NCBI GenBank assembly: GCA_049282265.1
Contig: JBAPTR010000162.1
Coordinates: 39,814 to 71,813, forward strand
Source of the DNA: Desulfatiglandaceae bacterium
GTDB lineage: Bacteria; Desulfobacterota; DSM-4660; Desulfatiglandales; Desulfatiglandaceae
Direction: 5' to 3'
Length of the DNA stretch: 32,000 nt
Part shown: piece by piece, positions 1,847 to 25,900 of the stretch
How the letters are laid out: the number at the start of each line of letters is the position of its first letter
Numbering within the stretch: position 1 is the first letter of the stretch
Translations under genes and position numbers: made by a program
The notes under the pieces: generated by a model
Seen by the model: the letters and a program-made list of their open reading frames with translations, nothing else
The model's database searches: none
Told to the model about the DNA's origin: nothing

Positions 1847-3058
1847 ATGAAAGAGAAAAAGACCATCGCCGTTGTGGGAACCTTTGATTCCAAGGGTGAC
1901 GAGCACTTGTTTTTAAAGAAACAGATCGAGGCGCGCGGTTGCAGGGCCCTGACCATCAACATAGGGACAGCAAGGCCCTCCCCTTTTCCCCCTGACCATG
2001 ATCTCTTCTCTGATGTCGTTCTCGGGAAGGATCTTGCGAACAAGGGTCGTGATGAGATGATCCAGGCTGTTATTTCGGCGGCCAGGGAACTGATCCGGGA
2101 AATCTATGGACGGGGCGAGATCCACGGGATCATCTCAGCAGGCGGCGGCACGGGCACCCACCTGGGCACGCGCATCATGCAGGCTCTTCCCATGGGCATC
2201 CCCAAGGTGATGGTCTCCACGGTGGCCTCCCGGGACATGTCGAAGACCGTGGGCACCAAAGACATCACCATGATGCACAGCGTAACGGACATCATGGGGA
2301 TCAACAGCCTGACCGGCGCCGTCCTGGACAAGGCCGCGGCCGCGGTCTCCGCCATGGCCGGGAGCAACTGGAAGAGCGGGGAGCCGAAAAAGCGCATTGC
2401 GCTGACCATGTTCGGGTTCATCACCAGGGCCGCCGAGCAAATCAGAGAGCACCTTGAGGCCCTTGGTTATGAGGTCATTCCCTTTCACGCCAACGGCACC
2501 GGGGGAAATGCCATGGAAGAACTGGCCAGGGAAGGCAGCTTTGACGGAATACTGGATCTCGCCACCCACGAACTGGCCGACGAGCTAAAGGGTGGCTACT
2601 GCAAGGGGATCGGGCCGTTGCGCCTCGAGCCTATCAACGGCAGGACCGTCCCCCGGTTGGTGGTGCCGGGCGGCCTCGACTGCGCTGTCCTGGAGTTCAC
2701 CCGGCAAAACGTCCCCCCGGAGTTCAAGGATCGGAAGGTCTTTTTCTATGATTTCCGTTCGGCCATCCGCCTCAACCTGAAAGAAACGTTCAACCTGGCG
2801 GAACAGGTTGCCGGAAAGCTGAACCGGGGCCCCTCCACCGTCAGGTTGCTCATCCCCCTGGGCGGCTGGTCAGAGGCCGATCGAGAGGGGGGGCCGCTTT
2901 ATGACCCTGATATGCGCGATGCCTTCATAGAAAAATTGAAAGAGAATCTGGCCCCCCAAATCCGTGTCCTGGAAGTGGACAGTCACATCAATGATCCGGC
3001 CTTTACCCAACTGGCATCATCGACGATGCATGAGATGCTCAATAAAAAAGATGGCTGA
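1847..3058 (+). CDS. UPF0261 / Tm-1-like ATP-binding domain protein (paralogue 1)
   Basis: 403-aa ORF with GGAGG 6 nt upstream of the ATG. Paralogous over its full length to 11317..12552, sharing blocks such as GGGTGT...G, PKxMVST/AVSS, TMFG/TQFG, PxGGWS. The architecture matches bacterial UPF0261 proteins as I recall the family. Confidence 0.7.
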   Translation: MKEKKTIAVVGTFDSKGDEHLFLKKQIEARGCRALTINIGTARPSPFPPDHDLFSDVVLGKDLANKGRDEMIQAVISAARELIREIYGRGEIHGIISAGGGTGTHLGTRIMQALPMGIPKVMVSTVASRDMSKTVGTKDITMMHSVTDIMGINSLTGAVLDKAAAAVSAMAGSNWKSGEPKKRIALTMFGFITRAAEQIREHLEALGYEVIPFHANGTGGNAMEELAREGSFDGILDLATHELADELKGGYCKGIGPLRLEPINGRTVPRLVVPGGLDCAVLEFTRQNVPPEFKDRKVFFYDFRSAIRLNLKETFNLAEQVAGKLNRGPSTVRLLIPLGGWSEADREGGPLYDPDMRDAFIEKLKENLAPQIRVLEVDSHINDPAFTQLASSTMHEMLNKKDG

Positions 3059-3067
3059 CGGAACGGA

Positions 3068-4012
3068 TTATTTCCAGTGGTCAAAGATCCGGGACATGAT
3101 GTCCCGCAACCCGTCCCCGGGCTTCTCCTGGGCAATCTTCAGGAGGATATCCACGAAGGCCTGGGCCGGCAGACTGAGGTTCTGGTTTTCCAGGTACGCG
3201 ATACTCACATCCAGATAAATGCTCGGCCCTTCCAGGGGCAAGGTTGCCAGCCTCTTTTCCTGGAGTTCAATTGAAACGGCTTCCCGAACAAGGAACGAAA
3301 CGCCCTCCCCCCGGTGGACGAGTTCCTTTATGAATTCGGCGTTGCTCGTCTCCATCAGGATATCGGGGGTACACTGGTTCCCGGCGAAGAGCGCGTTGAC
3401 CTTTTTTCGTGTCCCCGATCCCAACTCCTTCATGATAATGGGCTCCCGTGCCAGGTCATTGACCGAGATCGCATCCCTTGATGCGAGCGGATGGTCAGGT
3501 GCGAGAATCACCACGAGTTCCTCCTGGCTAAAGGGGATAAAGCGCACATCGGGATTCTCTTCGGCCCTGGCGATGACCGCCACCTCGTTTTTCAGATCCA
3601 CCAGGCTGTGGATCATGTCCGCGGAACTGCCCTCATCCAGGTGTATCTTGATCTGGGGATAGGCCTCGTGGAAATTGGTCACCAGAAAGGGCATGAAGTA
3701 ACGCGCATAGGTCTTGGTGGTTCCCAGCCGTAAGACACCCCGCTTCAGCTCCCGCATCTCCTCGATGACATTTTCAAGGTCCTTTTCGCATGCAAAGATC
3801 CTCTTGGCATAATCGAAGAGCGCCCTGCCCTCCTCGGTCAGGTAGATATTTCTTCCCTTCCTCTTAAAAAGCTTCAGGCTGCATTGCTCTTCAAATCGCT
3901 TGATCTGTGCCGTCACGGCCGGCTGGGTAATGTAAAGCCTTTCAGCGGCCGCCGTGCAGCTGAGATGTTTGGCGGTCATATAGAAGACCCTGAGGTGATG
4001 GAGATTGATCAT
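3068..4012 (-). CDS. LysR-family transcriptional regulator
   Basis: The N-terminal HTH (MINLHHLRVFYMTAKHLSCTAAAERLYITQPAVTAQIKRFEE) is followed by a LysR substrate-binding domain. I place the start at the internal ATG (4012), which gives a canonical LTTR N-terminus, not at the TTG at 4045. The gene is divergent from the pps-like operon. Confidence 0.9.
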   Translation of the reverse strand: MINLHHLRVFYMTAKHLSCTAAAERLYITQPAVTAQIKRFEEQCSLKLFKRKGRNIYLTEEGRALFDYAKRIFACEKDLENVIEEMRELKRGVLRLGTTKTYARYFMPFLVTNFHEAYPQIKIHLDEGSSADMIHSLVDLKNEVAVIARAEENPDVRFIPFSQEELVVILAPDHPLASRDAISVNDLAREPIIMKELGSGTRKKVNALFAGNQCTPDILMETSNAEFIKELVHRGEGVSFLVREAVSIELQEKRLATLPLEGPSIYLDVSIAYLENQNLSLPAQAFVDILLKIAQEKPGDGLRDIMSRIFDHWK

Positions 4013-4078
4013 TGGTATTGATGGACCGTTCCTATCCCTAAACAAAATTTATAACGTCACTCTATTCATAAACCAGGG

Positions 4079-4133: not shown

Positions 4134-4291
4134 TCATGACATCTGATCTGGCAACCATTTCAGCACCTGTATCCGCGCTTCCTCTCACCTCTCCCGGGCC
4201 GAAACGTGCCAGGACGATTTCAAATGCGATTCCGTTAAGTTAGCCTCACGCATGGCCTTATCAACCACCAACACTACAAGGAGGATTGAAG

Positions 4292-6154
4292 ATGGCAGAG
4301 GAAAAAGCAGGAAGATTTCCGGATCCGCATGAGTACCAAATTCCACCGGAACTTGAAGGCTGGGAGGAGATGTACCCTTCCCATTACCTTTTTTCGGATC
4401 ACAGGAAGGACTGGGAAAAGGCCCAATTCTGGTACCTGGACAAAATCCATGCACCCGAACCCGTACCCCCGCTGGACATGATTTTTCAGGAGGCCTGGCA
4501 GATCTCACTTTCCCAGTACACGACCAGGGTTTTCTGTATCCCCCCGGCCCAGGGCATAGCCCAGCGGATGGTGGGCTGCTACATGTACATCTGTGCCATC
4601 GCCCCGCCACCTGACGAGATTATAGGAGAGAAGGCCCAGCTCTTTGAAAAGCGGGTGTTCTATGTATTCGAGCACTACGATGAGTTGTGGGACAAGTGGC
4701 TGACAAAATTCAAGGCCCTCGGGGAGGAAATGAAAGCGGTGAGGGTCCCTGCCGAACTGCCGAAATACGTACCCGAAGATGAGGTCCTGCCCGCGCCCAA
4801 AGGCTTTTACGATTCCTACAACGTGATGGAGGCCTTCGATATTGTCGCGAACCAGATGATCAAGGGGTGGCAGTATCATTTTGAGATGCTGAATCTCACC
4901 TATCTTGCCTACCTCATGTTCGGGGACGTGACGAGAAAGCTCTTTCCCGGGATCAGTGAGAGCGCCATCGGCAAAATGGTCGCAGGGGCCTACGTCTCCA
5001 TGTTCCGGCCGGAAGAAGAACTCTGCCGCCTTTCGAGGCTGGCCGTCTCTTCAAGGGGTGTGGCGGATATCCTGAAGAGCGATATCTCCGCGGAACAAAA
5101 AATGGCCGAACTCCAAAAAATCCCCGACGGGAAACACTGGCTTGAAGAATATGACAAGGCAAAGGACCCCTGGTTTTATGTCTCCTGCGGCAGCGGCTGG
5201 TACCATCACGAAGGGAGCTGGCTCACCCAGCCCGACATTCCCTTCAGCTACATCAAGAGCTACGTGGAACGTCTGGAAAACGGGGAAACCATTGAACGGT
5301 CCCTGGATGCCATTGACAAAGAGCGCGACGAAACCGTCAATAAATACAGAGAGCTGATCCGATCGGACGAAGACCGGAAATCCTTTGACGACGCCTACAA
5401 TACCATCCGAACCATCTATCGGTATGCCGAGGACCATCTCTTCTGGGTGGAGCACTGGTTTCACACCATCTGGTACGCCAAGATAAGAAAATTCGGAAAC
5501 CTCCTGGTCAAGAACGATATGATTGATCATGTGGATGATATTTTCATGTTCACCCGCTATGAAATCCCCGAAATGCTCACGGAACTCTCCACCGGCTGGG
5601 CCCTTGGCGTTGATATCCCCTTAAGGGGGAGCTTCTACAAGGCCAAGGCCGAAAAAAGGAGAAAGATACTCGAGGCTGCAGGAAAATGGAACCCCACCCC
5701 GGCCCTCGGTGTCCCTCCGGAAGAGGTGGCGGAACCTTTTACCATTATGCTCTGGGGGGTGACAACCGACCGGGTCAAGGAGTGGCTCGAGGGCATGGGT
5801 GAAGTCAAGGCGCTGGGGGATATCTCCGAGATAAAGGGTTTCGCCTCTTCGGCCGGCACCGCGGAAGGTCCTGCAAGGGTGTTGAAGCTCCTCAAGGAGA
5901 TCGTTGATCTCCAGCCGGGAGAGATCATTGTGTGTCCTTCCACCAACCCCTCCTGGGCCCCTGTCTTTACCAAAATCAAGGGGGCGGTAACCGATATCGG
6001 CGGGCTGACCAGCCACGCGGCCATTGTGTGCCGGGAATACGGCGTGCCGTCCGTGACCGGGACCGGTGTGGCGACAGCCTTGATCAAGACCGGGGATATC
6101 ATCCGCGTGGATGGGGACACGGGCAAGGTGACCATCGTCAAAAGAGCGGGATAG
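4292..6154 (+). CDS. phenylphosphate-synthase alpha-like protein (PEP-utilising enzyme, mobile phosphohistidine domain, no PEP/pyruvate TIM domain)
   Basis: AAGGAGG lies 7 nt upstream of ATG 4292; the track's TTG at 4286 is too close to the RBS. The C-terminus carries the swivelling His-domain motif GGLTSHAAIVCREYGVP. The N-terminal ~480 aa (FPDPHEYQIPPELEGWEEMYP...) resemble PpsA-type proteins as I recall them. Confidence 0.8.
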   Translation: MAEEKAGRFPDPHEYQIPPELEGWEEMYPSHYLFSDHRKDWEKAQFWYLDKIHAPEPVPPLDMIFQEAWQISLSQYTTRVFCIPPAQGIAQRMVGCYMYICAIAPPPDEIIGEKAQLFEKRVFYVFEHYDELWDKWLTKFKALGEEMKAVRVPAELPKYVPEDEVLPAPKGFYDSYNVMEAFDIVANQMIKGWQYHFEMLNLTYLAYLMFGDVTRKLFPGISESAIGKMVAGAYVSMFRPEEELCRLSRLAVSSRGVADILKSDISAEQKMAELQKIPDGKHWLEEYDKAKDPWFYVSCGSGWYHHEGSWLTQPDIPFSYIKSYVERLENGETIERSLDAIDKERDETVNKYRELIRSDEDRKSFDDAYNTIRTIYRYAEDHLFWVEHWFHTIWYAKIRKFGNLLVKNDMIDHVDDIFMFTRYEIPEMLTELSTGWALGVDIPLRGSFYKAKAEKRRKILEAAGKWNPTPALGVPPEEVAEPFTIMLWGVTTDRVKEWLEGMGEVKALGDISEIKGFASSAGTAEGPARVLKLLKEIVDLQPGEIIVCPSTNPSWAPVFTKIKGAVTDIGGLTSHAAIVCREYGVPSVTGTGVATALIKTGDIIRVDGDTGKVTIVKRAG

Positions 6155-6181
6155 GTAAACGCCTCCTCTCCGGCGGCCTGC

Positions 6182-6219
6182 GGGGGTGGGTGAGGGATTT
6201 TTCATTCCCCACCCACCCC
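6182..6219 (+). other. strong GC-rich intercistronic hairpin between the alpha- and beta-like genes
   Basis: GGGGTGGGTG(A)GGGA - tttttcat - TCCCCACCCACCCC gives 14 bp with one bulged A and an 8-nt loop. No U-tract follows. Confidence 0.5.
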
Positions 6220-6288
6220 TTGCCGGAACAACCCGACCCCTCCCGGGGAAGGGACCGTCAGGGTGGAAAGGCATTCAAGGAGCAAGGC

Positions 6289-7359
6289 ATGGATTACGTG
6301 CTGAATTTCAAAAACGTGGACAGGACCTCTCTGCCAGTGGTAGGGGGCAAAAATGCCAGCCTGGGAGAAATGATCAAGACCGGTATTCGCGTGCCGCCGG
6401 GATTCGCCGTCACTACGCAGAGCTACCAGAGTTTCATCACCGCGACGGGCATTCAAGAGGAGATCTTTCACCTCCTCTCCGATCTTGATGTGGATGATAT
6501 GGAAGCGCTCAACGCCGCCAGTGCCGGCATTCAAAAGCTGTTCCTGAAAACCCCCATGATAGGAGAAATCGCAGCGGCCATCGCCTCCGAATATAGACGT
6601 CTCTGTGAAACCTCCAGTCTGAAAAATATCCCCGTTGCGGTTCGATCAAGCGCCACGGCTGAAGACCTTCCAACGGCAAGTTTCGCCGGCCAGCAGGATA
6701 CCTATCTCTGGATTCAGGGAGAAGACGCGGTGGTTCAAAACGTCCAGAAATGCTGGGCAAGCCTTTTTACGCCGAGGGCCATCAGCTACAGGGTCAAAAA
6801 TGGCTTTGCCCACGAAAAGGTCCTGATCAGCATTGGCGTACAGAAGATGGTCAACTCCAAGGCCGCAGGAGTCTTGTTTACCCTCAACCCCACAAACGGG
6901 GACCCGTCCAAGGTGGTCATCGAAGGAAGCTGGGGTCTTGGGGAAACAGTGGTGTCCGGTTCCGTGAACCCGGACAAGTTTGTGGTGGACAAGGTGGTCA
7001 TGGAGACGAATGAAAAAACCATCTCCAAAAAGCATATTGAATGCATTTTTGATCCCCGGAAGGGAACAGTGATTGATGCGGATGTGGCTGAAGACAGACA
7101 AAGGGTTTGCTGCCTCCAGGATAGAGAGGTACTGGAACTGGTTCAGATTGCCAAGCGCATTGAAGACCATTATCGCCGCCCCATGGATGTCGAGTGGGCC
7201 ATCGACCAGGACGTGAATTTTCCGGAAAACGTCTTTATTGTCCAGGCGCGTCCGGAGACGGTCTGGAGCCAGCGCAAAAAGGAACCCCTTATCGGGAAGA
7301 AGAGCGGGTTCCAGCTGCTCATGGAACAGGCCATGAAACGGATCAAGATTCCAGGATAG
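6289..7359 (+). CDS. phenylphosphate-synthase beta-like protein (PEP synthase N-terminal ATP-grasp / nucleotide-binding domain)
   Basis: The start is set at ATG 6289, with AAGGAG 6 nt upstream. The protein begins MDYVLNFKNVDRTSLPVVGGKNASLGEMIKTGIRVPPGFAVT, the classic PEP-synthase/PPDK N-terminal motif. The track's upstream extension (5932-6288) overlaps the previous gene and is Arg/Gly-rich junk. Confidence 0.8.
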   Translation: MDYVLNFKNVDRTSLPVVGGKNASLGEMIKTGIRVPPGFAVTTQSYQSFITATGIQEEIFHLLSDLDVDDMEALNAASAGIQKLFLKTPMIGEIAAAIASEYRRLCETSSLKNIPVAVRSSATAEDLPTASFAGQQDTYLWIQGEDAVVQNVQKCWASLFTPRAISYRVKNGFAHEKVLISIGVQKMVNSKAAGVLFTLNPTNGDPSKVVIEGSWGLGETVVSGSVNPDKFVVDKVVMETNEKTISKKHIECIFDPRKGTVIDADVAEDRQRVCCLQDREVLELVQIAKRIEDHYRRPMDVEWAIDQDVNFPENVFIVQARPETVWSQRKKEPLIGKKSGFQLLMEQAMKRIKIPG

Positions 7360-7497: not shown

Positions 7498-8901
7498 ATG
7501 AAAAGCATGAGAGATTTCATCGCCCAGGCAGAGGCGGAAGGAATGTTGAAGCGGATCAAGGCGGAAGTGGACTGGAACCTGGAACTGTCCCACATTGCCA
7601 AGCTGAACGAAGAAAAGAAGGGACCCGCGCTCCTGTTTGAAAATGTGAAGCATTACAAGTCGCCCGTGATTACCAGCGTCTGTACCACCACGGAGAGGCT
7701 GGCCCTGATCATGGGGGAGCCCAGGGATTCGACACTTGTGGACCTGATGAGGGTATGGGTGGAAAAGCACGACAACGCGATTCCCCCCAGATATGTTGAT
7801 GAGGCCCCCTGCAAGGAAAATATCATGACGGGAGATGATATTGATCTCTTCAAATTCCCGGCACCCAAATTCTATCCCCTGGACGGGGGTCGGTTTTTTG
7901 GCACGGCCCACTTTGTTGTGACCAAGGACCCGGAGTCGGGATGGGTCAATGTAGGAACCTACCGGCTGCAGTTGCTGGACAAAAACCACCTGGGCACCCA
8001 GTTCATCAGGGGCAAGCATTCCGACATCATGCTCAAAAAATACCAGGCCATGGGCAAGCCCATGCCGGTGTGTGTGGTGGTGGGATGCGATCCCCTGCTC
8101 TTCCTCATGGGGGCGGCACGCCTCTCGGCATTCGAGTCCGAATATGATTTCGCCGGCTCCATCCGTGGCGAACCCATAGAGGTGGTCAAAGCCGAGACCA
8201 ATGACCTTCCTGTGCCGGCCACCGCCGAGATCGTCGTGGAAGGAGAAGTGGATGCGGACAAGTTCATGGAAGAGGGTCCTTTTGGTGAATACACAGGATA
8301 TTATTCCGGCGTCGGCACGGACCCGAGAAATTTTATCGATGTCAAGTGCGTGACCTACAGGAACAACCCCATATTCTGGGGCACTACCGTGGGCAGAGCG
8401 GTTACGGATACCCACATGACCATGGCCCTTACTTATGGCGCTACCCTGTGGCAGCAGCTTGTGACCATGAAGATTCCGGGGATCAAGGCCGTCTACTGTC
8501 CACCCGAAGGATCCGGAAGGTTTCTGGCCATCATCTCCGTGAAGCAGATGTATCCCGGGCATGCCGACCAGGTCCTCACTGCGGCCATTTCAACGGAAAT
8601 GGGTGCCTATGGGCTCAAGACCGTCATCGTGGTGGATGAAGACATCGACCCCTGGGACATCCCGCGGGTCATGTACGCCCTCAGTTTCCGGTTTCAGCCC
8701 AACCGGTCACAGGTCATCAAGCGGGGGAGATCCACGCCGCTGGATCCATCCCTGCCCCTTGATTCCAGGCACATAACAGGGAGACTCCTCCTGGATGCCA
8801 CGATTCCCTATGACTGGAAGGAAAAGCCCATCCCCATCGTGCTGGATCCGGACCTTGTCAAGAAGATCCAGGGGCGGTGGTCGGAACTGGGGCTTGATTA
8901 G
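7498..8901 (+). CDS. UbiD-family prFMN-dependent (de)carboxylase, phenylphosphate-carboxylase-subunit-like
   Basis: 467 aa with GAGGAGG 10 nt upstream. UbiD hallmarks include ...GTYRLQ..., MPVCVVVGCDP and EEGPFGEYTGYY. Confidence 0.9.
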   Translation: MKSMRDFIAQAEAEGMLKRIKAEVDWNLELSHIAKLNEEKKGPALLFENVKHYKSPVITSVCTTTERLALIMGEPRDSTLVDLMRVWVEKHDNAIPPRYVDEAPCKENIMTGDDIDLFKFPAPKFYPLDGGRFFGTAHFVVTKDPESGWVNVGTYRLQLLDKNHLGTQFIRGKHSDIMLKKYQAMGKPMPVCVVVGCDPLLFLMGAARLSAFESEYDFAGSIRGEPIEVVKAETNDLPVPATAEIVVEGEVDADKFMEEGPFGEYTGYYSGVGTDPRNFIDVKCVTYRNNPIFWGTTVGRAVTDTHMTMALTYGATLWQQLVTMKIPGIKAVYCPPEGSGRFLAIISVKQMYPGHADQVLTAAISTEMGAYGLKTVIVVDEDIDPWDIPRVMYALSFRFQPNRSQVIKRGRSTPLDPSLPLDSRHITGRLLLDATIPYDWKEKPIPIVLDPDLVKKIQGRWSELGLD

Positions 8902-9047: not shown

Positions 9048-9575
9048 ATGCCACAAGACAACATGCTGGAGGGCAAGAAAGTCCTCATTGTGGACGACGA
9101 ACCGGATGTGCTGGCCACGCTGGAAGAGCTGCTGTCCATGTGTGGAATCACAAGAGCCTCGAATTTCGAGGAGGCCAAAGCTCTCCTGGAGACCCGGGAA
9201 TTCCACGTGGCGGTTCTGGATATCATGGGAGTCGACGGATACGGGCTCCTGGAAATAGCACGGCAAAGAGGCATCCCTGCCGTGATGCTCACGGCCCATG
9301 CCTTTACACCGGACAACCTCGTCAAATCCATCAAGGAGGGAGCCGCCAGCTATATTCCCAAGGAGGAAATCGCAGGGATCGCGGATTTCCTGGTGGATGT
9401 GCTCAATGCGAAGGCCGCGAAAAAAGACCCCTGGGAGGCCTGGCAACGGAAGCTGCCCGCCTCCTACTTTGCGAGGAGATGGGGCGCCGCGTGGGACGGT
9501 GTTGATAAGGAATTCTGGGAAAAATTTAGAGCGGGTATAAAGGACAGAGGATCTAAGTCCAAAGAATCCGAATAA
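9048..9575 (+). CDS. stand-alone response-regulator receiver protein (CheY-like) with a short C-terminal extension
   Basis: KKVLIVDDEPDVL...VAVLDIMGVDGYGLL...VMLTAHAF...K are the receiver-domain acidic pocket, phospho-Asp and T/K positions. The ~55-aa tail shows no recognisable HTH. AGGAGA RBS. Confidence 0.85.
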   Translation: MPQDNMLEGKKVLIVDDEPDVLATLEELLSMCGITRASNFEEAKALLETREFHVAVLDIMGVDGYGLLEIARQRGIPAVMLTAHAFTPDNLVKSIKEGAASYIPKEEIAGIADFLVDVLNAKAAKKDPWEAWQRKLPASYFARRWGAAWDGVDKEFWEKFRAGIKDRGSKSKESE

Positions 9576-9602: not shown

Positions 9603-11264
9603 GTGAAACCTATTCGTTATGATCAAGCACAGGTAGAACAATATTTGCAGCGCGGATATTGGGATAAAACGATTCTGCCTGATTACTGGGACAGGAATGC
9701 CAGGCTATGGCCCGACAGAGAGGGACTTGTGGACTCCACAGGCAGGAGGCTTACCTGGAAAGAAGCAGCGCTGAAAATAGACAGAATTGCCTTTGCTATA
9801 ATCAAAGACATGAAACTGAAAAGGGATGAAAGGCTGATGGTTCAGCTGCCCAACTGCGTGGAACAGGTTCTGGTACGCCTTGCCTGCGAAAAGGCAGGCG
9901 TCTTGTCTATTCCCGAAATGACGACCTTCCGTTTGACGGAGTTGAAAGACATTGCCGGTCGGACTGATGCCGCGGGTATTGTAATACCGAAAGTGTACCG
10001 AAAATTCAACCATTATGATATGGCGAAAGAACTCCAGGCCCATGTGCCAAGCCTCAAACATATTATAATTGCGGACGAGGACGTTCCCGAGGGCTGCATC
10101 TCTCTTCAAGAAATCATGAAACGCGCTTATGAGAAGCAATACGATCTCATTGAGCTCAAAGCAAGAAATCTTGATGCGATAGAAGAGATCGGGTTTCTGA
10201 TTACGACTACGGGGACCACTGGTCTTCCCAAGCTCATTGAACACCGGATTGCGGCCCGTGAGATATGGACAGCAAAATCACACGTGAGAAACTGGCAACT
10301 CGGTCCTGACGATTGTGTCCTCGCCATAGCGCCCCTGGCCGGGGCCGCAGGCGGCACACCTGCCTATGTTACCGCCCCGGTAGGCGGAGCCAAGATTGCG
10401 TTGGAGTATCAATATCGTGGTGAGGAAACTCTTGAATTCATGATGAAAGAAAAAGTCACGGTCATTGCCGTGGTCCCTACCCAATTGGCAAGGTTACTCG
10501 AGTTGCCACTGGTAAAATATGATTTATCATCCCTGCGCATCATAAAAACCGCCGGGGGATATTTGCCGCCGCCTTTGGCCAAAGAAGCCGAAGAACGTTT
10601 TGGCTGTCCCATACTCGGCACCTATGGTACGCAGGATACGGGTTCAATATCAGGCGTGCCCATAAATGCCTCCAAGGAACAGCGGTACACAACAGTAGGC
10701 AGATTGCACCCTGGAATTGAGATAAAAATTCTGGATGATTCCGGACACCCGGTGAAAAAGGGCGAGGTCGGGACCCTTTGGTTCATAGGTCCCGGAAACT
10801 CTATCGGCTACTACAGAGACCTTGAAAAAACAATGACCGAGGCATTTGATAAGGATGGCTTTGCCACTCCGGGTGACCTTGTCACACTATTGGACGATGG
10901 TTATCTCAAAATAATGGGGAGGAAAAAAAATATTATCATCCGGGGCGGACAGAATATCTACCCGAGAGAGATAGAGGACTACCTCGTCACCCATCCCGAC
11001 GTCACAAACGCCGCCGTAGTTCCCATGCCTGATCCGGAAATGGGTGAACGTGCTTGTGCCTTCATTACATTTAAAGAAGGGAAACAATTTACGTTTGAGG
11101 AGATGATTGAATTTCTGAAGGGCAAGAAAATCGCCCCGTTTAAATTGCCCGAGAGGTTGGAAGTCTTGGATGCCCTTCCTCTCGTGGGTGAAAGCGGAAA
11201 GATAGATAACAAGGCCATGGTTCAAATGATCACTCAAAAGCTCAAGTTGGAAGGGAGCCTATAA
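9603..11264 (+). CDS. AMP-forming aryl/acyl-CoA ligase (adenylate-forming superfamily)
   Basis: GTG start with GGGAGGG 5 nt upstream. It carries the P-loop-like TTTGTTGLPK, GTYGTQDTG, and GDL...GYLKIMGRKKNIIIRGGQNIYPREIE motifs. Confidence 0.85.
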   Translation: MKPIRYDQAQVEQYLQRGYWDKTILPDYWDRNARLWPDREGLVDSTGRRLTWKEAALKIDRIAFAIIKDMKLKRDERLMVQLPNCVEQVLVRLACEKAGVLSIPEMTTFRLTELKDIAGRTDAAGIVIPKVYRKFNHYDMAKELQAHVPSLKHIIIADEDVPEGCISLQEIMKRAYEKQYDLIELKARNLDAIEEIGFLITTTGTTGLPKLIEHRIAAREIWTAKSHVRNWQLGPDDCVLAIAPLAGAAGGTPAYVTAPVGGAKIALEYQYRGEETLEFMMKEKVTVIAVVPTQLARLLELPLVKYDLSSLRIIKTAGGYLPPPLAKEAEERFGCPILGTYGTQDTGSISGVPINASKEQRYTTVGRLHPGIEIKILDDSGHPVKKGEVGTLWFIGPGNSIGYYRDLEKTMTEAFDKDGFATPGDLVTLLDDGYLKIMGRKKNIIIRGGQNIYPREIEDYLVTHPDVTNAAVVPMPDPEMGERACAFITFKEGKQFTFEEMIEFLKGKKIAPFKLPERLEVLDALPLVGESGKIDNKAMVQMITQKLKLEGSL

Positions 11265-11316: not shown

Positions 11317-12552
11317 ATGAGAAAAGATATCATCATTGCGGTTATGGCAGAGGAAAAGTGGGAAGAAGCGGAGTTCCTGCGCCGGCAAATTGAATCCTTC
11401 GGGCAAAGGGCCAGGATTATGGATATAAGTTTGCTGCAAGAACCCCCGGGGACCTGCCATATTGCCCGGGAAGAGGTTATCCGGGCCAGCGGCCGAATGC
11501 CTGACGAAGTGGCACTCGTATCGGATAGAGGGAAACGGATGCCCATCATGGTGGAAGGGGCCAGGAAAAAGGCACTCGATCTCTACTCCAAGGGAAATCT
11601 TGCGGGCATAATAGGCATAGGTGGAACTACAGGGACCCAAATGGGAACCGATATTATGAAGGTCCTCCCTTTTGGAGTCCCAAAATTGGCTGTTTCGAGC
11701 ACGGCATCAATTCCGGGACTTGCCACAAGATACATGGGGACAAAGGACATTACCCTCATGCACACGGTAGTGGAATTTACAGGGCTTAATGACTATATGA
11801 AAAATGTTCTGGCCAGGGCCGCCGGCGCTATTTGCGGAATGGTGGAAGGCTCTGCCCGTTTTCCCGTTTCCACGTCCAATAAGAGGGAAAGGCCCTTCAT
11901 TGCCATGACACAATTTGGGCCTTGCGAGGAATGTGCCGTAAACGTCAGGAAGCAGCTTGAACAGAAAGGCTACCAGATTGTGGCTTTTTCGGCCTCAGGT
12001 TCCGGCGACAGGGCCATGGAGGAAATGATAGAAAAACAGGATATGTTCCGTGCCGTAATCGATCTTGCCCCGGGTGGAGTGGGTGAAGAGCTGCTTGGTT
12101 TTGCAAGGGCGGCAGGTTCCACCCGATTGGAGGCCGCAGGCCAAAAAGGGATACCGCAAATTATCGCCACGAGCGGAGTCAATTTCGGCTCCCCATTCAA
12201 GCGAAGGTATAAGCCTGAATATGAATTTCGAAAAAAGTATGACTACGATGCAGCCCGCACCTTCATGAGGTTATCTCATGAAGAACTGACTCTGATCGCT
12301 CTCACCATTGCAGATAAGCTCAACAAGGCACAGGGTCCGGTAAAGGTAGTAGTCCCCATTGGTGGCTGGTCGTCGGTTGACAAGAGAGGATCTTCCTTCT
12401 ACGATGGAGTAGCAGACAGCGTATTCGTTAAGGCCCTTGAAAACCGACTGAGGCCGGATATCGAGATCACGAAAGTTGACGCAGACCTGGAAACTCCTGA
12501 ATTCGCCGGGGCGGTGGTAAACGCTGTTCTTGATATCTTGAGAAATAAATAG
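11317..12552 (+). CDS. UPF0261 / Tm-1-like ATP-binding domain protein (paralogue 2)
   Basis: 411 aa, colinear with 1847..3058. Its stop TAG (12550-12552) overlaps the GTG (12552) of the next gene as TAGTG. Confidence 0.7.
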   Translation: MRKDIIIAVMAEEKWEEAEFLRRQIESFGQRARIMDISLLQEPPGTCHIAREEVIRASGRMPDEVALVSDRGKRMPIMVEGARKKALDLYSKGNLAGIIGIGGTTGTQMGTDIMKVLPFGVPKLAVSSTASIPGLATRYMGTKDITLMHTVVEFTGLNDYMKNVLARAAGAICGMVEGSARFPVSTSNKRERPFIAMTQFGPCEECAVNVRKQLEQKGYQIVAFSASGSGDRAMEEMIEKQDMFRAVIDLAPGGVGEELLGFARAAGSTRLEAAGQKGIPQIIATSGVNFGSPFKRRYKPEYEFRKKYDYDAARTFMRLSHEELTLIALTIADKLNKAQGPVKVVVPIGGWSSVDKRGSSFYDGVADSVFVKALENRLRPDIEITKVDADLETPEFAGAVVNAVLDILRNK

Positions 12553-12947
12553 TGGAATTTACAATCACCACCAGCAAGGGACATTATGATCTGGAAGCAG
12601 CGGTCAGATCTGTCGGGAAAGATCTGCTTGTGGCTATCTGGGGCGGGGAGCAGCCCCACATCGGCGCGACGGCGGTTGCCCAGCCAAGACCGAGCCTGAA
12701 GGATCCCGAGAGGGTCAGCGCAACCGCATCGATATTCTGCCTTCTGGGACACAAGGAAGATGATCTCGCGAAGGCCGTGGCGGAGATCCTGGCGGCCGCT
12801 CTGAATACGACTGTGGTGGTAACCGCCGGCATTCACTGGGACAACCTGGATGCTGAAGGGATCAGCAGGGTCCTCCAAAACAGCGAGATTCTGGTTGACC
12901 TGATTCTGGAGCAAATCGGAACCCTATCCTCCCGTGACGCCGGATGA
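12552..12947 (+). CDS. LpdD-like small protein (putative prenylated-FMN chaperone / UbiD accessory subunit)
   Basis: 131 aa. The motifs LLVAIWGGEQPHIGATAV and VVVTAGIHWDNL match the GG..PHIG and TAGIH blocks I recall from Lactobacillus plantarum LpdD. It sits directly upstream of ubiX. Confidence 0.6.
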   Translation: MEFTITTSKGHYDLEAAVRSVGKDLLVAIWGGEQPHIGATAVAQPRPSLKDPERVSATASIFCLLGHKEDDLAKAVAEILAAALNTTVVVTAGIHWDNLDAEGISRVLQNSEILVDLILEQIGTLSSRDAG

Positions 12948-12969
12948 GAGGCGGAAAGGCGCTACACGC

Positions 12970-13542
12970 ATGACAAAACGAATCGTTATCGGCATCGCGG
13001 GGGCGAGCGGCGTGATTTACGGCGTCCGGATGCTCCGATTGCTCCAGGGCAAGGGTTTTGAAATCCATCTCATCGTATCCGAAGCCGGCGCAAGAAACCT
13101 TGAGATTGAAACCGGTTTTGACCTGGATCAGGTGAGGGCCCTGGCCGACCATGTGTACGATAATCGTGATATGGCCGCCTCCCTTGCGAGCGGTTCATTC
13201 CTCACGGAGGGAATGGTGGTCATTCCCTGCACAATCAAGACCCTGTCCGGGATCGCCAATTCCTATACGAACAACTTGATGGTAAGGGCCGCTGACGTGA
13301 CACTGAAAGAGAAACGAAAGCTGGTCCTGGTGGTCCGGGAAACCCCTCTTCACAAAGGACATTTGAGGTTAATGACCATGGCGGCTGATATGGGTGCTCA
13401 TATCCTGCCACCTGTCCCGTCTTTTTACCATAAACCCGAGACCATTGAAGACATCCTGGATCAGACCATCGGAAAGATTTTCGATTACCTCTCAATAGAT
13501 CATAATCTGTTCAAAAGGTGGCAGAGTGAAGGGCAGCGATAA
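12970..13542 (+). CDS. ubiX: flavin prenyltransferase UbiX
   Basis: MTKRIVIGIAGASGVIYGVRMLRLL...SGSF...IPCTIKTLSGIA...RAADVTLKEKRKLVLVVRETPLH.GHLR...PPVPSFYH is near-colinear with E. coli UbiX. An alternative GTG start at 12934 would overlap the LpdD-like stop. Confidence 0.92.
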   Translation: MTKRIVIGIAGASGVIYGVRMLRLLQGKGFEIHLIVSEAGARNLEIETGFDLDQVRALADHVYDNRDMAASLASGSFLTEGMVVIPCTIKTLSGIANSYTNNLMVRAADVTLKEKRKLVLVVRETPLHKGHLRLMTMAADMGAHILPPVPSFYHKPETIEDILDQTIGKIFDYLSIDHNLFKRWQSEGQR

Positions 13543-14038: not shown

Positions 14039-14066
14039 TTGACACTATTTTTTCTTATGTTATCTT
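14039..14066 (+). promoter_or_regulatory. candidate promoter of metF (copy A)
   Basis: TTGACA, a 16-nt spacer ending in TGT, then TATCTT (extended -10-like). The same architecture is conserved in copy B. Confidence 0.4.
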
Positions 14067-14173
14067 ATGAATTATATGGTAGGTTCTTCATCCTGAACAG
14101 ACCAGATTATTACTCTTTTTCTACGGTCTTTATAAAGCTGACTTCAGCAAAAGCGGGGCGGAATGGATTACAG

Positions 14174-15109
14174 ATGATGGAGACAAAGACACCCAGTAAG
14201 CTGGAAAAAATCCTTGCGACAGGACATGTAGCCGTAACATCCGAATGCGGCCCTCCCAGGGGAAGTGATCCCGGAATCATTATCAAGAAGGCCGAATTGA
14301 TCAAGGACCATGTTGATGCCATTAATGTCACGGATAATCAGACAGCCATGACAAGGCTGTGCAGTCTGGCCTCAGTCGCTCACCTCAAGCTAATAGGCCT
14401 TGAGCCGGTCCTCCAGATGGTTGTGAGAGATCGGAATCGGATCGCACTCCAAAGCGATATCCTGGGGGCAGCCTCTTTTGACATTCATAATATGCTCTGT
14501 CTGTCCGGAGACCATCAAAAATTCGGCGACTGTCCTGACGCCCAGAATGTATATGACATCGATTCCATGCAGCTCATTCGCATGGCCAGGCACATGCGGG
14601 ATGAGGGAAAATTTGTGGGAGGAGATGAGATCAACCGACCACCCCGCATGTTCGTGGGTGCTGCGGCCAACCCTTTTGCCGACCCGTTTGAAATCCGCAT
14701 CCCTCGTCTCGCTAAGAAAATCGCGGCAGGGGCCGAGTTCATTCAAACCCAGTGTATCTATAATGTGGACAAATTTGAATTGTGGATGAAACAAGCGCGG
14801 GACCGGGGCCTCCACGAAAAGGTCTACATACTGGCAGGGATAACCCCGATAAGATCAGCCGGCATGGCAAGATACATGAAAAACCGCGTCCCCGGCATGG
14901 ATGTCCCGGATGAAACCATCAAGAGAATGAGCGGCGTATCTGCAAAGAAACAACCTGAGGAAGGGATTAATATTTGTGTGGAAACCATCCAAAGGCTGAA
15001 AGAGGTTGAAGGGGTCAGGGGGTTCCATATCATGGCAATAGAGTGGGAAGAAAAAGTCCCGGAGATCGTGGAAAGAAGCGGGCTTTATCCGAGACCGAAG
15101 ATAAGCTGA
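14174..15109 (+). CDS. metF: methylenetetrahydrofolate reductase, acetogen/anaerobe MetF type
   Basis: The start is set at ATG 14174 (MMETKTPSKLEKILATGHVAVTSECGPPRG...). The protein shows a MetF-like TIM-barrel pattern (INVTDNQ..., LCLSGDH, FVGAAANPF, GAEFIQTQ). The track's TTG 14039 extension is AT-rich promoter sequence. Confidence 0.8.
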   Translation: MMETKTPSKLEKILATGHVAVTSECGPPRGSDPGIIIKKAELIKDHVDAINVTDNQTAMTRLCSLASVAHLKLIGLEPVLQMVVRDRNRIALQSDILGAASFDIHNMLCLSGDHQKFGDCPDAQNVYDIDSMQLIRMARHMRDEGKFVGGDEINRPPRMFVGAAANPFADPFEIRIPRLAKKIAAGAEFIQTQCIYNVDKFELWMKQARDRGLHEKVYILAGITPIRSAGMARYMKNRVPGMDVPDETIKRMSGVSAKKQPEEGINICVETIQRLKEVEGVRGFHIMAIEWEEKVPEIVERSGLYPRPKIS

Positions 15110-15162
15110 ATTGTAATCCTCTAAAATTGTACGCGAATAGCGGTGGCAGGAGATGAAAACCC

Positions 15163-15549
15163 ATGTCCTATTTTGTGGTAAACGAAAACTGTAATGGATG
15201 CCTGGCGTGCGTGGAGAACTGTCCCGCAAACGCATTGAGATTTAAAGACACAGACGAAAACCGTACCATTTTGCATAATATGGCCAAATGCGTCAGGTGT
15301 GCCAATTGCTGGCGAGTCTGTCCTCAGCAGGCCATTGAATTCCAGCACTTTCTGGAAAACGAGTGGGACGAAGTCAAGTCCCTGGACCTGGTCCATTGCA
15401 GGGTTTGCGGTGAGCCCATTTACACCACAGACCTTGAAAAGACCTTGACCGGGAAAACAGGCAGTGAGATTGATGCCCTTTGCCCAAAACACAGGGAATT
15501 GGATTTCGCTGCCAGGCAGGCACTGGTCCCTTTCAGGAGGGCCGCATGA
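15163..15549 (+). CDS. 2x[4Fe-4S] ferredoxin-domain protein with a Cys-rich C-terminal extension
   Basis: CNGCLACVENCP and CVRCANCWRVCP motifs, then CRVCG...CPKH. AGGAGA RBS. Confidence 0.75.
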   Translation: MSYFVVNENCNGCLACVENCPANALRFKDTDENRTILHNMAKCVRCANCWRVCPQQAIEFQHFLENEWDEVKSLDLVHCRVCGEPIYTTDLEKTLTGKTGSEIDALCPKHRELDFAARQALVPFRRAA

Positions 15550-15562
15550 AGAGAGGTAAAAG

Positions 15563-16231
15563 ATGATCGTAGCTGATCTGAAACCTGTGGGTGAGATAGC
15601 CGAATCAATATCGCCATTTCAAAAAGTCTCCATAGTGGCCTGTGGAGGGTGTGTGTCCGTATGCCTCACCGGTGGCGCCAGTAGCGCCGATACCCTGGCA
15701 AGGGAACTCTCTCATCCCAGACATTACAAAGAGCGCCCGCCGATCCTCGCTACCACAACCATCCAGAGACAGTGTGAAAAAGATTTCGTTACGGCTTACC
15801 TCAACCTCCCCCGTGACACAGACGCCATTCTGTCAATGGCATGCGGTGCAGGAGTCCAGACCCTGGCTGAGATTTTCGGCAAGGTCCCTATTCTCCCGGC
15901 CCTCAATACCAGCTTCCTTGGATCGTTGGACGAGCCGGGGGTGTGGCGCGAAAAATGCCAGGGGTGTGGAAGCTGTGTGCTGGCCTTTACCGGGGGTATA
16001 TGCCCTGTTACCCGATGTGCCAAGCACCTCCTCAATGGTCCCTGCGGCGGTTCAAGTAACGGCAAGTGCGAAATAAGCAAAGACGTCGATTGTGCCTGGC
16101 AGTTGATCATAGACCGGCTCAAGGCACTCGGCAGACTCAATGACTATGAAAAAATCTTTCCCATCAAGGACTGGTCATCAGACCGGGGGGGAGGCCCCCG
16201 GTCAATGCAGTTCTCCAGTAAAAAAACCTGA
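15563..16231 (+). CDS. metV: MetV-like protein (methylenetetrahydrofolate reductase C-terminal domain family)
   Basis: CPVTRCAKHLLNGPCGGSSNGKCEISKDVDCAW matches the MTHFR_C/MetV signature (..NGPCGG...G.CE...). It follows metF, as in the MetFV systems of anaerobes. Confidence 0.75.
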   Translation: MIVADLKPVGEIAESISPFQKVSIVACGGCVSVCLTGGASSADTLARELSHPRHYKERPPILATTTIQRQCEKDFVTAYLNLPRDTDAILSMACGAGVQTLAEIFGKVPILPALNTSFLGSLDEPGVWREKCQGCGSCVLAFTGGICPVTRCAKHLLNGPCGGSSNGKCEISKDVDCAWQLIIDRLKALGRLNDYEKIFPIKDWSSDRGGGPRSMQFSSKKT

Positions 16232-24315: not shown

Positions 24316-25776
24316 TTGATTGGAAATAGAGGTCGAGAGATAACAGTGGACGCAGATAGAATTGAATTGCTTTCAGTTGGTGTAGACGTGGGAACCTCTA
24401 CAAGCCACCTGGTTTTTTCAAACCTGGTATTGGAAAGGGATCCGAAATCCCCTACCAAACGTTTTCAAATCAAGGAAAGAAACATCATTTATGAGGGAAA
24501 AATAGTAGATACCCCGATGCTGGACAAGAATACAATTGATGTGGAAAGGCTCTCCGGCTTTTTTGAGGAAGAATATAAGCGAGCGGGAATTGACGCCGGA
24601 GATATTCAAAGTGGCGCGGTTATTGTAACTGGAGAAATGGCCAAAAAAGACAATGCAAAGCAAATAGTAGAGGCATTGTCAAACGGGGCGGGAAATTTTG
24701 TCGCAGCAACAGCAGGGGCAAATTTCGAAAGCCTATTAACAGCAATGGGTTCAGGGGCGGTAGATAGATCAAAGCGATACAACAAGACAATATTGTCCTG
24801 CGACATCGGCGGAGGAACATCGAACATCGCCATATCAAAGAATGGACGGGTTCTGTCAACAAGCTGCATATCTGTAGGGGGCAGATTACTTGGTGTAAGT
24901 TCTGAAGGAAGGATTTGGAAGATCGATGAACCTGCAACGGAAGTTATGAAAGAGATTGGGTTGCATTACAAAATCGGTGACAAAATCCCGGAAGAGGATA
25001 TTGGAAGCATAGCAACAAGGTTTGCCGAAATATTGATTGAGGTCATTACCGGTCCGGCCGCTTCCCCTTTGGCCAAGCGGTTAATGATGACTGATGATCC
25101 GGATTTTCCAGGCAGAATAGATGAATATATGTTTTCAGGGGGTGTCGCAGAGTTGATATACGGGGGTAATGGCAGTTACAAGGATATGGGAAAGATTTTA
25201 GCCGATAAAATAAATTCGTTGATACCGAAATTGACTGCTCCGGTTATAGAGCCTGAAAACAAGATCAGGGCCACCGTTATTGGAGCAGGTGCATATTCAT
25301 TATCCATTTCCGGCTCATCCGGATTCATGGATAACAAAATTTCATTTCCCATAAGAAATATTCCCGTAATCAGGGTCGATATCGATGATTCGCAATTGAG
25401 CCGTGATCACATTATATCTCAGATAAATGTCGCATTTAGAAGATTTGACAAAAACGAAGGCGAAGAAATTGTTGCATTATATTTCAAAAACCCGGCCAGG
25501 GCTTATTATCCCGAATTAGAGTTGTTTGCGAAATCTATTGAAGCCGCTCTTCCCAATTCGATTGATAATAGAATACCGATTATATTGATATTTGAAAAAG
25601 ACATCGCATGCGGGGTGGGGAATGTCATCCGCCGGGAAACCGGATTGAAAACAAATTTCCTGTCATTAGATGAATTGATTTTGAAAGAAGGAGATTGGAT
25701 CGATATTGGTGAGCCACTGGTTAACGGTCAGGTGTTTCCCGTTACGGTAAAATCTCTTATTTTCAATAGGAACTAG
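24316..25776 (+). CDS. EutA-like ATPase (ethanolamine ammonia-lyase reactivase family, ASKHA fold)
   Basis: LLSVGVDVGTSTSHLVFS... and SGAVIVTGEMAKKDNA...FVAATAGANFESLLTAMGSGA are colinear with E. coli EutA as I recall it. The start is ambiguous: TTG 24316 or GTG 24346. GTG 24346 gives an EutA-like N-terminal length. Confidence 0.75.
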   Translation: MIGNRGREITVDADRIELLSVGVDVGTSTSHLVFSNLVLERDPKSPTKRFQIKERNIIYEGKIVDTPMLDKNTIDVERLSGFFEEEYKRAGIDAGDIQSGAVIVTGEMAKKDNAKQIVEALSNGAGNFVAATAGANFESLLTAMGSGAVDRSKRYNKTILSCDIGGGTSNIAISKNGRVLSTSCISVGGRLLGVSSEGRIWKIDEPATEVMKEIGLHYKIGDKIPEEDIGSIATRFAEILIEVITGPAASPLAKRLMMTDDPDFPGRIDEYMFSGGVAELIYGGNGSYKDMGKILADKINSLIPKLTAPVIEPENKIRATVIGAGAYSLSISGSSGFMDNKISFPIRNIPVIRVDIDDSQLSRDHIISQINVAFRRFDKNEGEEIVALYFKNPARAYYPELELFAKSIEAALPNSIDNRIPIILIFEKDIACGVGNVIRRETGLKTNFLSLDELILKEGDWIDIGEPLVNGQVFPVTVKSLIFNRN

Positions 25777-25900
25777 GGCCCCTTTCCGGTTTCCGCCGGG
25801 ACAGAAGCCCGACGGGCAGGAGATGTCCTGTAAAGCTTCGCCCCTTTTGCTTTTGAAGGTAGCAGCTTATCTTGTTGTGTTAGCCAGGGAACGGAAAAAA

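Follow-up and report, generated by a model that had tools for sequence, protein, structure and literature searches.

Phenol activation and carboxylation needs up to four ATP equivalents, and how strict anaerobes pay for this is an open question, as is the replacement for the gamma and delta carboxylase subunits and the synthase subunit PpsC that are missing in these organisms (Xie and Mueller, 2018). The closest described systems are the phenylphosphate synthase PpsABC and the phenylphosphate carboxylase PpcABCD of Thauera aromatica, and the phe cluster of Desulfatiglans anilini (H567DRAFT_02049-02059), which encodes PpcB (02059), a 2,3-dihydroxybenzoate-AMP (DHB-AMP) ligase (02058), a UPF0261 protein of 403 amino acids (aa) listed as 'Uncharacterized protein' (02057), and a UbiX-like protein (02056) (PMC7500099). 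Here, we analyze a stretch of 32,000 nucleotides (nt) of contig JBAPTR010000162.1 from a Desulfatiglandaceae bacterium (the window). It is an anaerobic phenol-to-benzoyl-CoA locus, and three genes close its phenol-activation operon: U2, which encodes a UPF0261 protein of the Tm-1/MarK family, a gene of the LpdD family, and the gene of the flavin prenyltransferase UbiX. The operon has the order PpsA, PpsB, PpcB-type UbiD, receiver protein, ligase of the ANL superfamily (ANL ligase), U2, LpdD, UbiX. It shares with T. aromatica the homologues of PpsA, PpsB, and PpcB as well as UbiX, but PpsC (CBS-domain), PpcC (the small gamma subunit), and PpcD (HAD-family phosphatase) are lacking among the scanned open reading frames (ORFs) of the window, which in their place has a receiver protein, a DHB-AMP-type ligase, two UPF0261 proteins, and LpdD. 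The gamma and delta subunits are likewise absent in D. anilini. There, PpcB, the DHB-AMP-type ligase, UPF0261, and UbiX are found in matching local order, a receiver protein of 175 aa (02050) is encoded as well, and the UPF0261 proteins are induced by phenol or, in the ani cluster (03866-03876), by aniline; however, no LpdD has been reported beside UbiX.

For the UPF0261 family itself, the closest characterized protein is MarK (multiple aromatic kinase, Saro_1862) of Novosphingobium aromaticivorans, a homodimer (PDB 9MPY) that phosphorylates the phenolic hydroxyl group of acetovanillone and related aromatics while converting ATP to ADP, and that functionally replaces the PpsAB-homologous dikinases AcvAB and HpeHI (Hall et al., JBC 2025, PMC12624787). 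Among MarK homologues, conservation exceeds 90% for D14, T15, and K16 of the nucleotide site and for G195, H219, and H304 of the aromatic pocket; the K16 site is equivalent to K20 of Tm-1, His219 hydrogen-bonds the phenolic oxygen, and both MarK and Tm-1 dimerize via their N-terminal domains (PMC12624787). A preliminary description of the window had stated that UPF0261 proteins have no assigned bacterial function, which is outdated now that MarK is known as an ADP-forming phenolic kinase. MarK and U2 are alike in that both genes lie in aromatic catabolic clusters whose chemistry begins with phosphorylation of a phenolic hydroxyl group, but the partners of U2 are a Pps dikinase, a UbiD carboxylase, and an ANL ligase, whereas the partner of MarK is a biotin carboxylase. 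Moreover, U2 comes from strict anaerobes. The prototype of the ATP-binding family is the N-terminal region of tomato Tm-1 (3WRV, 3WRW, 3WRX, 3WRY), which has its fold in common with U2 (TM-scores 0.6-0.7, E=8e-47). In contrast to U2, Tm-1 carries a fused TIM-barrel domain, works through its binding to a viral replicase, and retains the motifs GTADTK and FHATG that are lost in U2.

The other two genes resemble LpdB and LpdD of Lactobacillus plantarum, a UbiX and a chaperone that binds reduced prenylated flavin mononucleotide (prFMNH2). The window pair (12552-13542) is likewise predicted to be co-transcribed and to have a UbiD enzyme as its client, but in the window LpdD precedes UbiX, and the L. 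plantarum pair has no UPF0261 neighbor.

Genomic Context of U2

U2 is a signature gene of operons that combine Pps, UbiD, and ANL ligase, with the ANL ligase as its tightest partner and a canonical UPF0261 protein as a frequent companion. Scanning one genome per GTDB species gave 24 loci, from Desulfobacterales, Desulfatiglandales, and Dehalococcoidia metagenome-assembled genomes (MAGs). ORFs were called in the neighborhoods and compared with the proteins of the window by BLAST; related loci carry L-numbers, and the denominators are the loci with enough sequence. The most conserved feature of the locus is the ANL ligase directly upstream of U2 (20 of 22 loci). UbiD lies upstream of U2 in 13 of the 15 loci that have at least 4 kb of upstream sequence, and UbiX is present anywhere in the neighborhood in 14 of 25 U2 loci, so that the co-location with ubiD, and often ubiX, whose absence would have counted against the preliminary description, does exist. 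The tight link of U2 to LpdD and UbiX that it also assumed is not borne out: compared with the 20 of 22 loci for the ANL ligase, LpdD follows U2 within 200 nt in 3/16 loci and within 1 kb in 5/16.

The order U2-LpdD-UbiX recurs as one operon layout but is no conserved unit. In five loci (L005, L009, L012, L013, L023) the order is UbiD, receiver protein (in three of the five), a UPF0261 gene like the second paralogue of the window (U1), LpdD, UbiX, ANL ligase, and U2, such that U2 ends the operon and another paralogue precedes LpdD. The Dehalococcoidia loci L016, L019, and L022 have U2 after a PpsB/PasB-like gene and no UbiX in view. Look-ups that started from LpdD, and that were limited to its closest relatives, gave three loci which share the gene order of the window with an overlap of 1-4 nt (L105, L109, L111), one with the order receiver protein, UPF0261, ANL ligase, LMWPc-family protein, UPF0261, HD phosphohydrolase, LpdD, UbiX (L110), two in which LpdD-UbiX lies behind a PaaK-type ligase without UPF0261 (L106, L107), and one with LpdD alone (L108). 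The ANL-U2 pair also occurs by itself. L116 (5564-10233) consists of UPF0261, ANL ligase, U2, and an enoyl-CoA hydratase-family gene, and L017 (7813-12151) is an isolated unit of ANL ligase, U2, and UPF0261. Genes for Pps, UbiD, UbiX, and LpdD are absent from the 4-9 kb around these two modules; for L116, the 9 kb examined lack Pps, UbiD, and UbiX. In L117, UbiX and LpdD stand at the operon start, 8 kb from the ANL ligase, LMWPc-family protein, U2, and another UPF0261 at its end, and in L118 U2, another UPF0261, and UbiX lie beside an IS21 element. Phosphatase-type genes are found next to U2 in several loci: the gene of an HD phosphohydrolase begins at the stop codon of U2 and separates U2 from LpdD in L004 (11227-11829) and L020 (8038-8574), and it follows 7 nt after U2 in L110 (5370-5972), while the LMWPc-family protein (low-molecular-weight phosphotyrosine phosphatase family) is encoded between the ANL ligase and U2 in L110 (3496-4098) and L117 (8425-8961).

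Within the literature searched, it is new that a sharply delimited UPF0261 subfamily with altered motifs belongs, as a fixed and induced part, to operons for the anaerobic carboxylation of phenol and aniline. Nothing relevant was found that connects anaerobic phenol metabolism with Tm-1-like or UPF0261 proteins, or UbiX with dimethylallyl monophosphate (DMAP) kinases. A paper on ORM2 and benzene proved unrelated.

Sequence Motifs and Predicted Fold of U2

U2 matches the UPF0261 families PF06792 (158.6 bits, E=2e-46) and PF23189 (204.5 bits, E=1.6e-60) well above the cutoff of 27 bits, and NF002674 with 358 bits (cutoff 335). A Pfam scan found UPF0261 domains only and no CBS domain, which places U2 outside the family of PpsC, an AcuB-like CBS-domain protein of about 24 kDa. 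Its alignment with MarK (9MPY) spans the full length (E=1.5e-50, 29% identity), and the AlphaFold model (pLDDT 75.6) gives U2 the two-domain alpha/beta/alpha fold of Tm-1 and MarK, as the top PDB matches of the model are 9MPY and 3WRW/3WRX/3WRY (E from 1e-26 to 1e-22, TM-scores 0.6-0.7), while the next-best matches have E-values above 1e-4. Database proteins with a match to U2 at E<=1e-20 number more than 2,000, of which the best 120 are 65-85% identical to it; identities within the U2 subfamily are 57-85%.

The motifs by which the family is recognized are replaced throughout this subfamily. In U2 and all 24 species-representative orthologues, T-x-D-[ST]-K-G has become M-A-E-E-K-W and F-H-x-x-G has become F-S-A-[AS]-G, which corresponds to an exchange of MarK His219 for Ser, and in all U2 members MarK His304 is Tyr and His348 is Val. 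The MarK triplet D14-T15-K16 reads E12-E13-K14 in U2, with the Lys alone kept, and this is invariant in 40/40 aligned members; next to Lys16, Gly195 of MarK is retained. The E-E-K triplet and Ser219 are invariant over both the Desulfobacterota and the Dehalococcoidia sequences. At the position of the MarK Gly195 pocket U2 has a G-P-C-E-E-C loop (CxxC; residues 201-206, about 11917-11934), which is invariant in 40 Desulfobacterota-type U2 sequences and absent from the Dehalococcoidia variants, and which could be a metal or redox site. The invariance of the replaced motifs points to a new functional site under purifying selection and not to decay. A MarK-type phenol kinase was also considered for U2, and this membership was rejected because the defining residues Asp14, Thr15, His219, and His304 are absent.

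Other UPF0261 paralogues in these operons do retain the family motifs. U1 of the window and its relatives keep the canonical TFDSKG and FHANG, and a third type found in related phenol loci (Ux) has 40% identity to MarK and retains every key residue. In 14 loci U2 has a second UPF0261 next to it or close by. As far as the searched literature goes, it is also new that two or three UPF0261 paralogues, one of them MarK-like, are frequent in these phenol and aniline operons. The order U1, LysR on the minus strand, PpsA recurs in many metagenome loci, where U1 is often followed by a MarK-like third UPF0261. A sample of 80 metagenome loci, 39 of them informative, which covers the U1 clade and not the whole UPF0261 family, has PpsA within 6 kb downstream in 14/39 and another UPF0261 within 1 kb in 9/39; UbiX is present in one and LpdD in none of the 39, and the other neighbors are heterogeneous.

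As the family-wide Asp-Thr and His219 are lost in U2 and kept in the paralogues, U2 might be a non-catalytic pseudoenzyme, i.e., a regulatory, scaffolding, or ligand-sensing partner of a U1 or Ux kinase or of the ANL ligase. Such a partnership would be in line with the dimerization of MarK and Tm-1 through their N-terminal domains and with the canonical UPF0261 that often lies near U2 (the window, L017, L110, L116, L117, L118, and the L005 group). We nevertheless regard it as unlikely. The replaced positions (MAEEKW, FSAxG, CxxC) are invariant and do not drift, which suggests a new functional site, no second UPF0261 is in view at L002, L004, L020, L024, L105, L109, and L111, and the abundance of the D. 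anilini protein is close to that of catabolic enzymes (see below).

Coupling of U2 to LpdD and UbiX

The three genes and their tight coupling, as reported in the preliminary description, are real, and their families are assigned far beyond chance. Direct reading of the sequence confirms the overlap of the U2 stop codon and the LpdD start codon in TAGTG, which have one base in common. Independent gene calls on four public contigs with an identical protein, one of which is CAYTPP010000002.1 (139,561 nt; MAG GCA_964439845.1), give the same boundaries for U2 (411 aa), LpdD (131 aa), and UbiX (190 aa), and on those contigs LpdD likewise begins at the last base of the U2 stop codon. For UbiX, two starts had been proposed. 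The spacer of 22 nt after the LpdD stop codon holds, while the overlapping start at the in-frame GTG 12934 is rejected on the profile alignment and the independent gene calls; position 2 of the UbiX profile aligns with residue 3, which favors ATG 12970. Ahead of the LpdD GTG there is no Shine-Dalgarno-like GGAGG but only GAGAAA, and the lack of a strong Shine-Dalgarno sequence makes coupling by re-initiation plausible. A stop/start overlap of 1-4 nt between UPF0261 and LpdD is found again in L010, L011, L105, L109, and L111. A promoter and terminator scan gave no convincing intergenic terminator from the UbiD gene through UbiX, and its consensus matches are intragenic only.

LpdD matches PF21758 with 127.8 bits (cutoff 27), and its residues 4-105 match the crystal chains 8PZH, 8P4W, and 8PO5 of L. 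plantarum LpdD (E=6e-7), while UbiX matches NF004685 with 261.7 bits (cutoff 188) and TIGR00421 with 242.8 bits (cutoff 108.9). The LpdD gene adjoins ubiX in the window, and the same pairing is seen in L105-L107 and L109-L111. LpdD-family proteins are prFMNH2-binding chaperones (PMC10865409), and the window protein is predicted by family to be one too. As a gene arrangement, U2-LpdD-UbiX is a common case of known families packed into an operon.

From this coupling it had been proposed that U2 could catalyze an ATP-dependent step in the supply or maturation of prFMN; it might be a prenol kinase or another kinase forming DMAP, or a loader that acts with LpdD and UbiX. The overlap of U2 and LpdD in the window and the five further loci fits this proposal, the co-location with ubiD and ubiX stands, and the gene directly before LpdD-UbiX is mostly a UPF0261 (U2 or U1-like), sometimes with an HD phosphohydrolase between them, which could in principle turn dimethylallyl pyrophosphate (DMAPP) into DMAP; MarK, moreover, is a precedent in the family for kinase chemistry on a hydroxyl group. 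However, the main partner of U2 is the ANL ligase, and ANL-U2 and LpdD-UbiX occur separately. LpdD comes directly after U2 in few loci of the unbiased species sample, LpdD-UbiX lacks a UPF0261 in L106 and L107, LpdD is alone in L108, and lpdB-lpdD of L. plantarum do without such a partner (PMC10865409). Conversely, U2 and the ANL ligase occur without UbiX, LpdD, and UbiD in L017 and L116, and in L117 UbiX-LpdD is at the opposite operon end. U2 has also lost the conserved His that contacts the acceptor hydroxyl group in MarK, and the protein abundances in D. anilini, given in the next section, are hard to reconcile with such a role, which we consider rather improbable.

UPF0261 Proteins in the Proteome of Desulfatiglans anilini

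UPF0261 proteins are abundant, substrate-induced pathway proteins in D. anilini (Table 1). The protein 02057 belongs to the phe cluster, and 03869 is encoded next to Pas-beta (03868) and a ligase (03870) in the aniline cluster (PMC7500099); by synteny alone, both would be U2-type proteins.

Table 1. Abundance of proteins of the phe and ani clusters in D. anilini grown on four substrates (values from the supplement of PMC7500099).
Protein	4-Aminobenzoate	Aniline	Benzoate	Phenol
UPF0261 02057	0	5.0e7	5.3e7	2.5e9
ANL ligase 02058	8.5e8	8.0e8	6.6e8	1.26e10
PpcB 02059	1.5e9	8.8e8	8.8e8	1.8e10
UbiX 02056	0	0	0	3.9e7
Receiver protein 02050 (175 aa)	1.06e9	8.8e8	6.9e8	6.0e9
UPF0261 03869 (ani cluster)	5.4e9	6.5e8	0	0

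The protein 02057 is about 50-fold induced by phenol, and in phenol-grown cells it is about 65-fold more abundant than the adjacently encoded UbiX, which speaks against production of the two in stoichiometric amounts and against a function that serves UbiX only. The suggestion that tight coupling leads to stoichiometric amounts of the three products is thus contradicted in the one organism with data. The paralogue 03869 is highly expressed on aniline with UbiX undetected, which also weighs against a function in prFMN supply. The authors of the proteome study left the UPF0261 proteins undiscussed and called the function of the strongly phenol-induced ligase 02058 unknown; they further noted that they could not measure carboxylase activity in extracts and that the energy cost has no explanation in the case of a sulfate reducer. 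In vitro, PasAB and two UbiD subunits turn aniline into 4-aminobenzoate without UPF0261 (PMC7500099).

The preliminary description offered another option, namely that U2 stands in for the CBS-domain protein PpsC; it would then be an accessory subunit of the aryl-phosphate synthase that stimulates PpsAB or PasAB. This would agree with the position of 03869 next to Pas-beta, with the lack of a CBS-domain ORF among the scanned ORFs of the window, with U2 directly after PpsB/PasB-like genes in L016, L019, and L022, and with the presence of U2 always in pps-carrying clusters, yet no pps is in view in L017 and L116, where the ANL-U2 module stands without it. In Desulfobacterota the fixed neighbor is the ANL ligase and not Pps, PasAB works in vitro without UPF0261, and U2 is unrelated to PpsC in sequence and fold, all of which make a substitute for PpsC quite improbable.

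A Proposed Role in the Phosphoryl Chemistry of the Aromatic Substrate

What U2 does in the pathway we infer from the gene identities, the motif changes, the neighborhood statistics, and the published induction by phenol. Most likely, U2 would act in the nucleotide and phosphoryl chemistry of the aromatic substrate and not in prFMN supply; to this role in phosphoryl chemistry, taken broadly, we assign a probability of about 0.5. LpdD and UbiX would supply prFMN and deliver it to the PpcB-type UbiD, as in the known module (PMC10865409). U2 would stand outside this module as a divergent, pathway-dedicated member of the Tm-1/MarK family of nucleotide-binding phosphotransferases, and it would cooperate with the ANL ligase, Pps, and a canonical UPF0261 at the stage of phenol, phenylphosphate, or 4-hydroxybenzoate. 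It could be either a phosphotransferase with a remodeled acceptor pocket or a non-canonical subunit of a UPF0261 hetero-oligomer, and the overlap with LpdD seen here would reflect compact operon packing in one sublineage and not an obligate U2-LpdD-UbiX complex. The LMWPc family acts on phosphotyrosine, an aryl phosphate. The phosphatases encoded beside U2, both LMWPc-type and HD-type, fit the handling of aryl phosphates, and they are equally readable as DMAPP phosphatases.

Several points weigh against a role in phosphoryl chemistry. U2 lacks Asp14, Thr15, His219, His304, and His348 of MarK and should not be presumed to be a MarK-type phenol kinase, and PpsAB already supplies phenol phosphorylation. 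The sufficiency of PasAB and two UbiD subunits in vitro means that UPF0261 is not strictly required for the core chemistry. A UPF0261 (U2 or U1-like) immediately upstream of LpdD-UbiX in most loci with that pair, and the stop/start overlap of UPF0261 and LpdD in six loci, both of which fit a function in prFMN supply, have to be set against it as well, and the induced protein 02057 is taken to be U2-type from synteny only.

In a more specific and highly doubtful version of the phosphoryl role, U2 would be a phosphotransferase that binds aryl phosphates, either by itself or jointly with a canonical UPF0261, and that replaces the hydrolytic PpcD. In that case, the exchange of His219 for Ser would widen the phenol pocket known from MarK such that it holds phenylphosphate, the phosphoryl group would be passed back to ADP or AMP while the phenolate passes to UbiD, and the adjacent ANL ligase would trap the product.

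Other Genes of the Window

The remaining genes of the operon and its surroundings are given in Table 2. The mechanical ORF for PpsB (5932-7359, plus strand) would overlap PpsA by 223 nt; the true start is probably the ATG at 6289 behind AAGGAG, which gives a protein of 356 aa, in agreement with the 355-359 aa of homologues.

Table 2. Features of the phenol-activation operon and adjacent genes, with positions in the window.
Feature	Position	Strand	Length and basis
U1, second UPF0261 paralogue	1847-3058	+	403 aa; Pfam; alignment to 9MPY and Tm-1; motif tables
LysR regulator	3068-4045	-	back-to-back with U1, upstream of ppsA
PpsA-like phenylphosphate synthase subunit, PEP-utilizers mobile domain	4286-6154	+	PF00391; NF006153 845 bits
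PpsB-like subunit, PPDK_N ATP-binding domain	6289-7359	+	PF01326
UbiD-family carboxylase, phenylphosphate carboxylase beta-subunit type	7498-8901	+	TIGR02724 509.1 bits (cutoff 468.95)
Stand-alone receiver-domain protein	9048-9575	+	175 aa; PF00072; receiver-domain PDB matches
ANL-superfamily aryl-acid AMP/CoA ligase, 2,3-dihydroxybenzoate-AMP-ligase type	9603-11264	+	Pfam AMP-binding, NCBIfam
U2 (UPF0261, Tm-1/MarK family)	11317-12552	+	411 aa; ends with TAG 12550-12552
TAGTG	12550-12554	+	one base common to U2 stop codon and LpdD GTG start; read from sequence
LpdD-family gene	12552-12947	+	131 aa; GTG start 12552-12554, TGA stop 12945-12947
UbiX flavin prenyltransferase gene	12970-13542	+	190 aa; ATG start 12970

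In nearly all related loci the receiver protein is encoded between UbiD and the ANL ligase, and its acidic-pocket, Thr, and Lys positions align to NtrC. Its CheY-like counterpart 02050 reaches an enzyme-like abundance in phenol-grown D. anilini. Instead of a regulator, the receiver protein may be an acceptor of phosphoryl groups or a counterpart to PpcD, which is missing here. The ligase of the window is of the 2,3-dihydroxybenzoate-AMP-ligase type, whereas 4-hydroxybenzoate-CoA ligases are usually of the PaaK type.

On the 3' side of UbiX, the window continues with MTHFR-like and ferredoxin genes, an IclR regulator, HdrA-like genes, and BamB/BamC of the class II benzoyl-CoA reductase. Two gene groups of this region recur elsewhere: the MTHFR-like gene, ferredoxin, and DUF5981 (14039-16231, plus strand) are found again in L111, and a EutA-like gene followed by an unassigned ORF of 481 aa (24316-27268, plus strand) is found again in L008. 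Both may be extra conserved parts of the class II benzoyl-CoA reductase region. In several relatives, genes of the 4-hydroxybenzoyl-CoA reductase type (FAD_binding_5, Fer2, MoCoBD) lie directly after or adjacent to UbiX (L105, 9007-12854; L109, 7059-10907; L117, 11736-15378), with none within the 32-kb window.

Implications for Anaerobic Phenol Degradation

The subfamily with MAEEKW and FSAxG is a fixed component of these operons in two phyla, which makes the two motifs usable as an annotation signature. U2, U1 or Ux, the receiver protein, and the DHB-AMP-type ligase are clonable candidates for the part of the pathway that is unexplained. That U2 is unlikely to be an enzyme of prFMN supply is a correction relevant to the heterologous activation of UbiD carboxylases. 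If the replacement of PpcD by U2 were true, the ATP cost of phenol activation would be approximately halved in sulfate reducers and syntrophs, and it could account for the phenylphosphate carboxylase activity that has never been measurable in extracts of such organisms.

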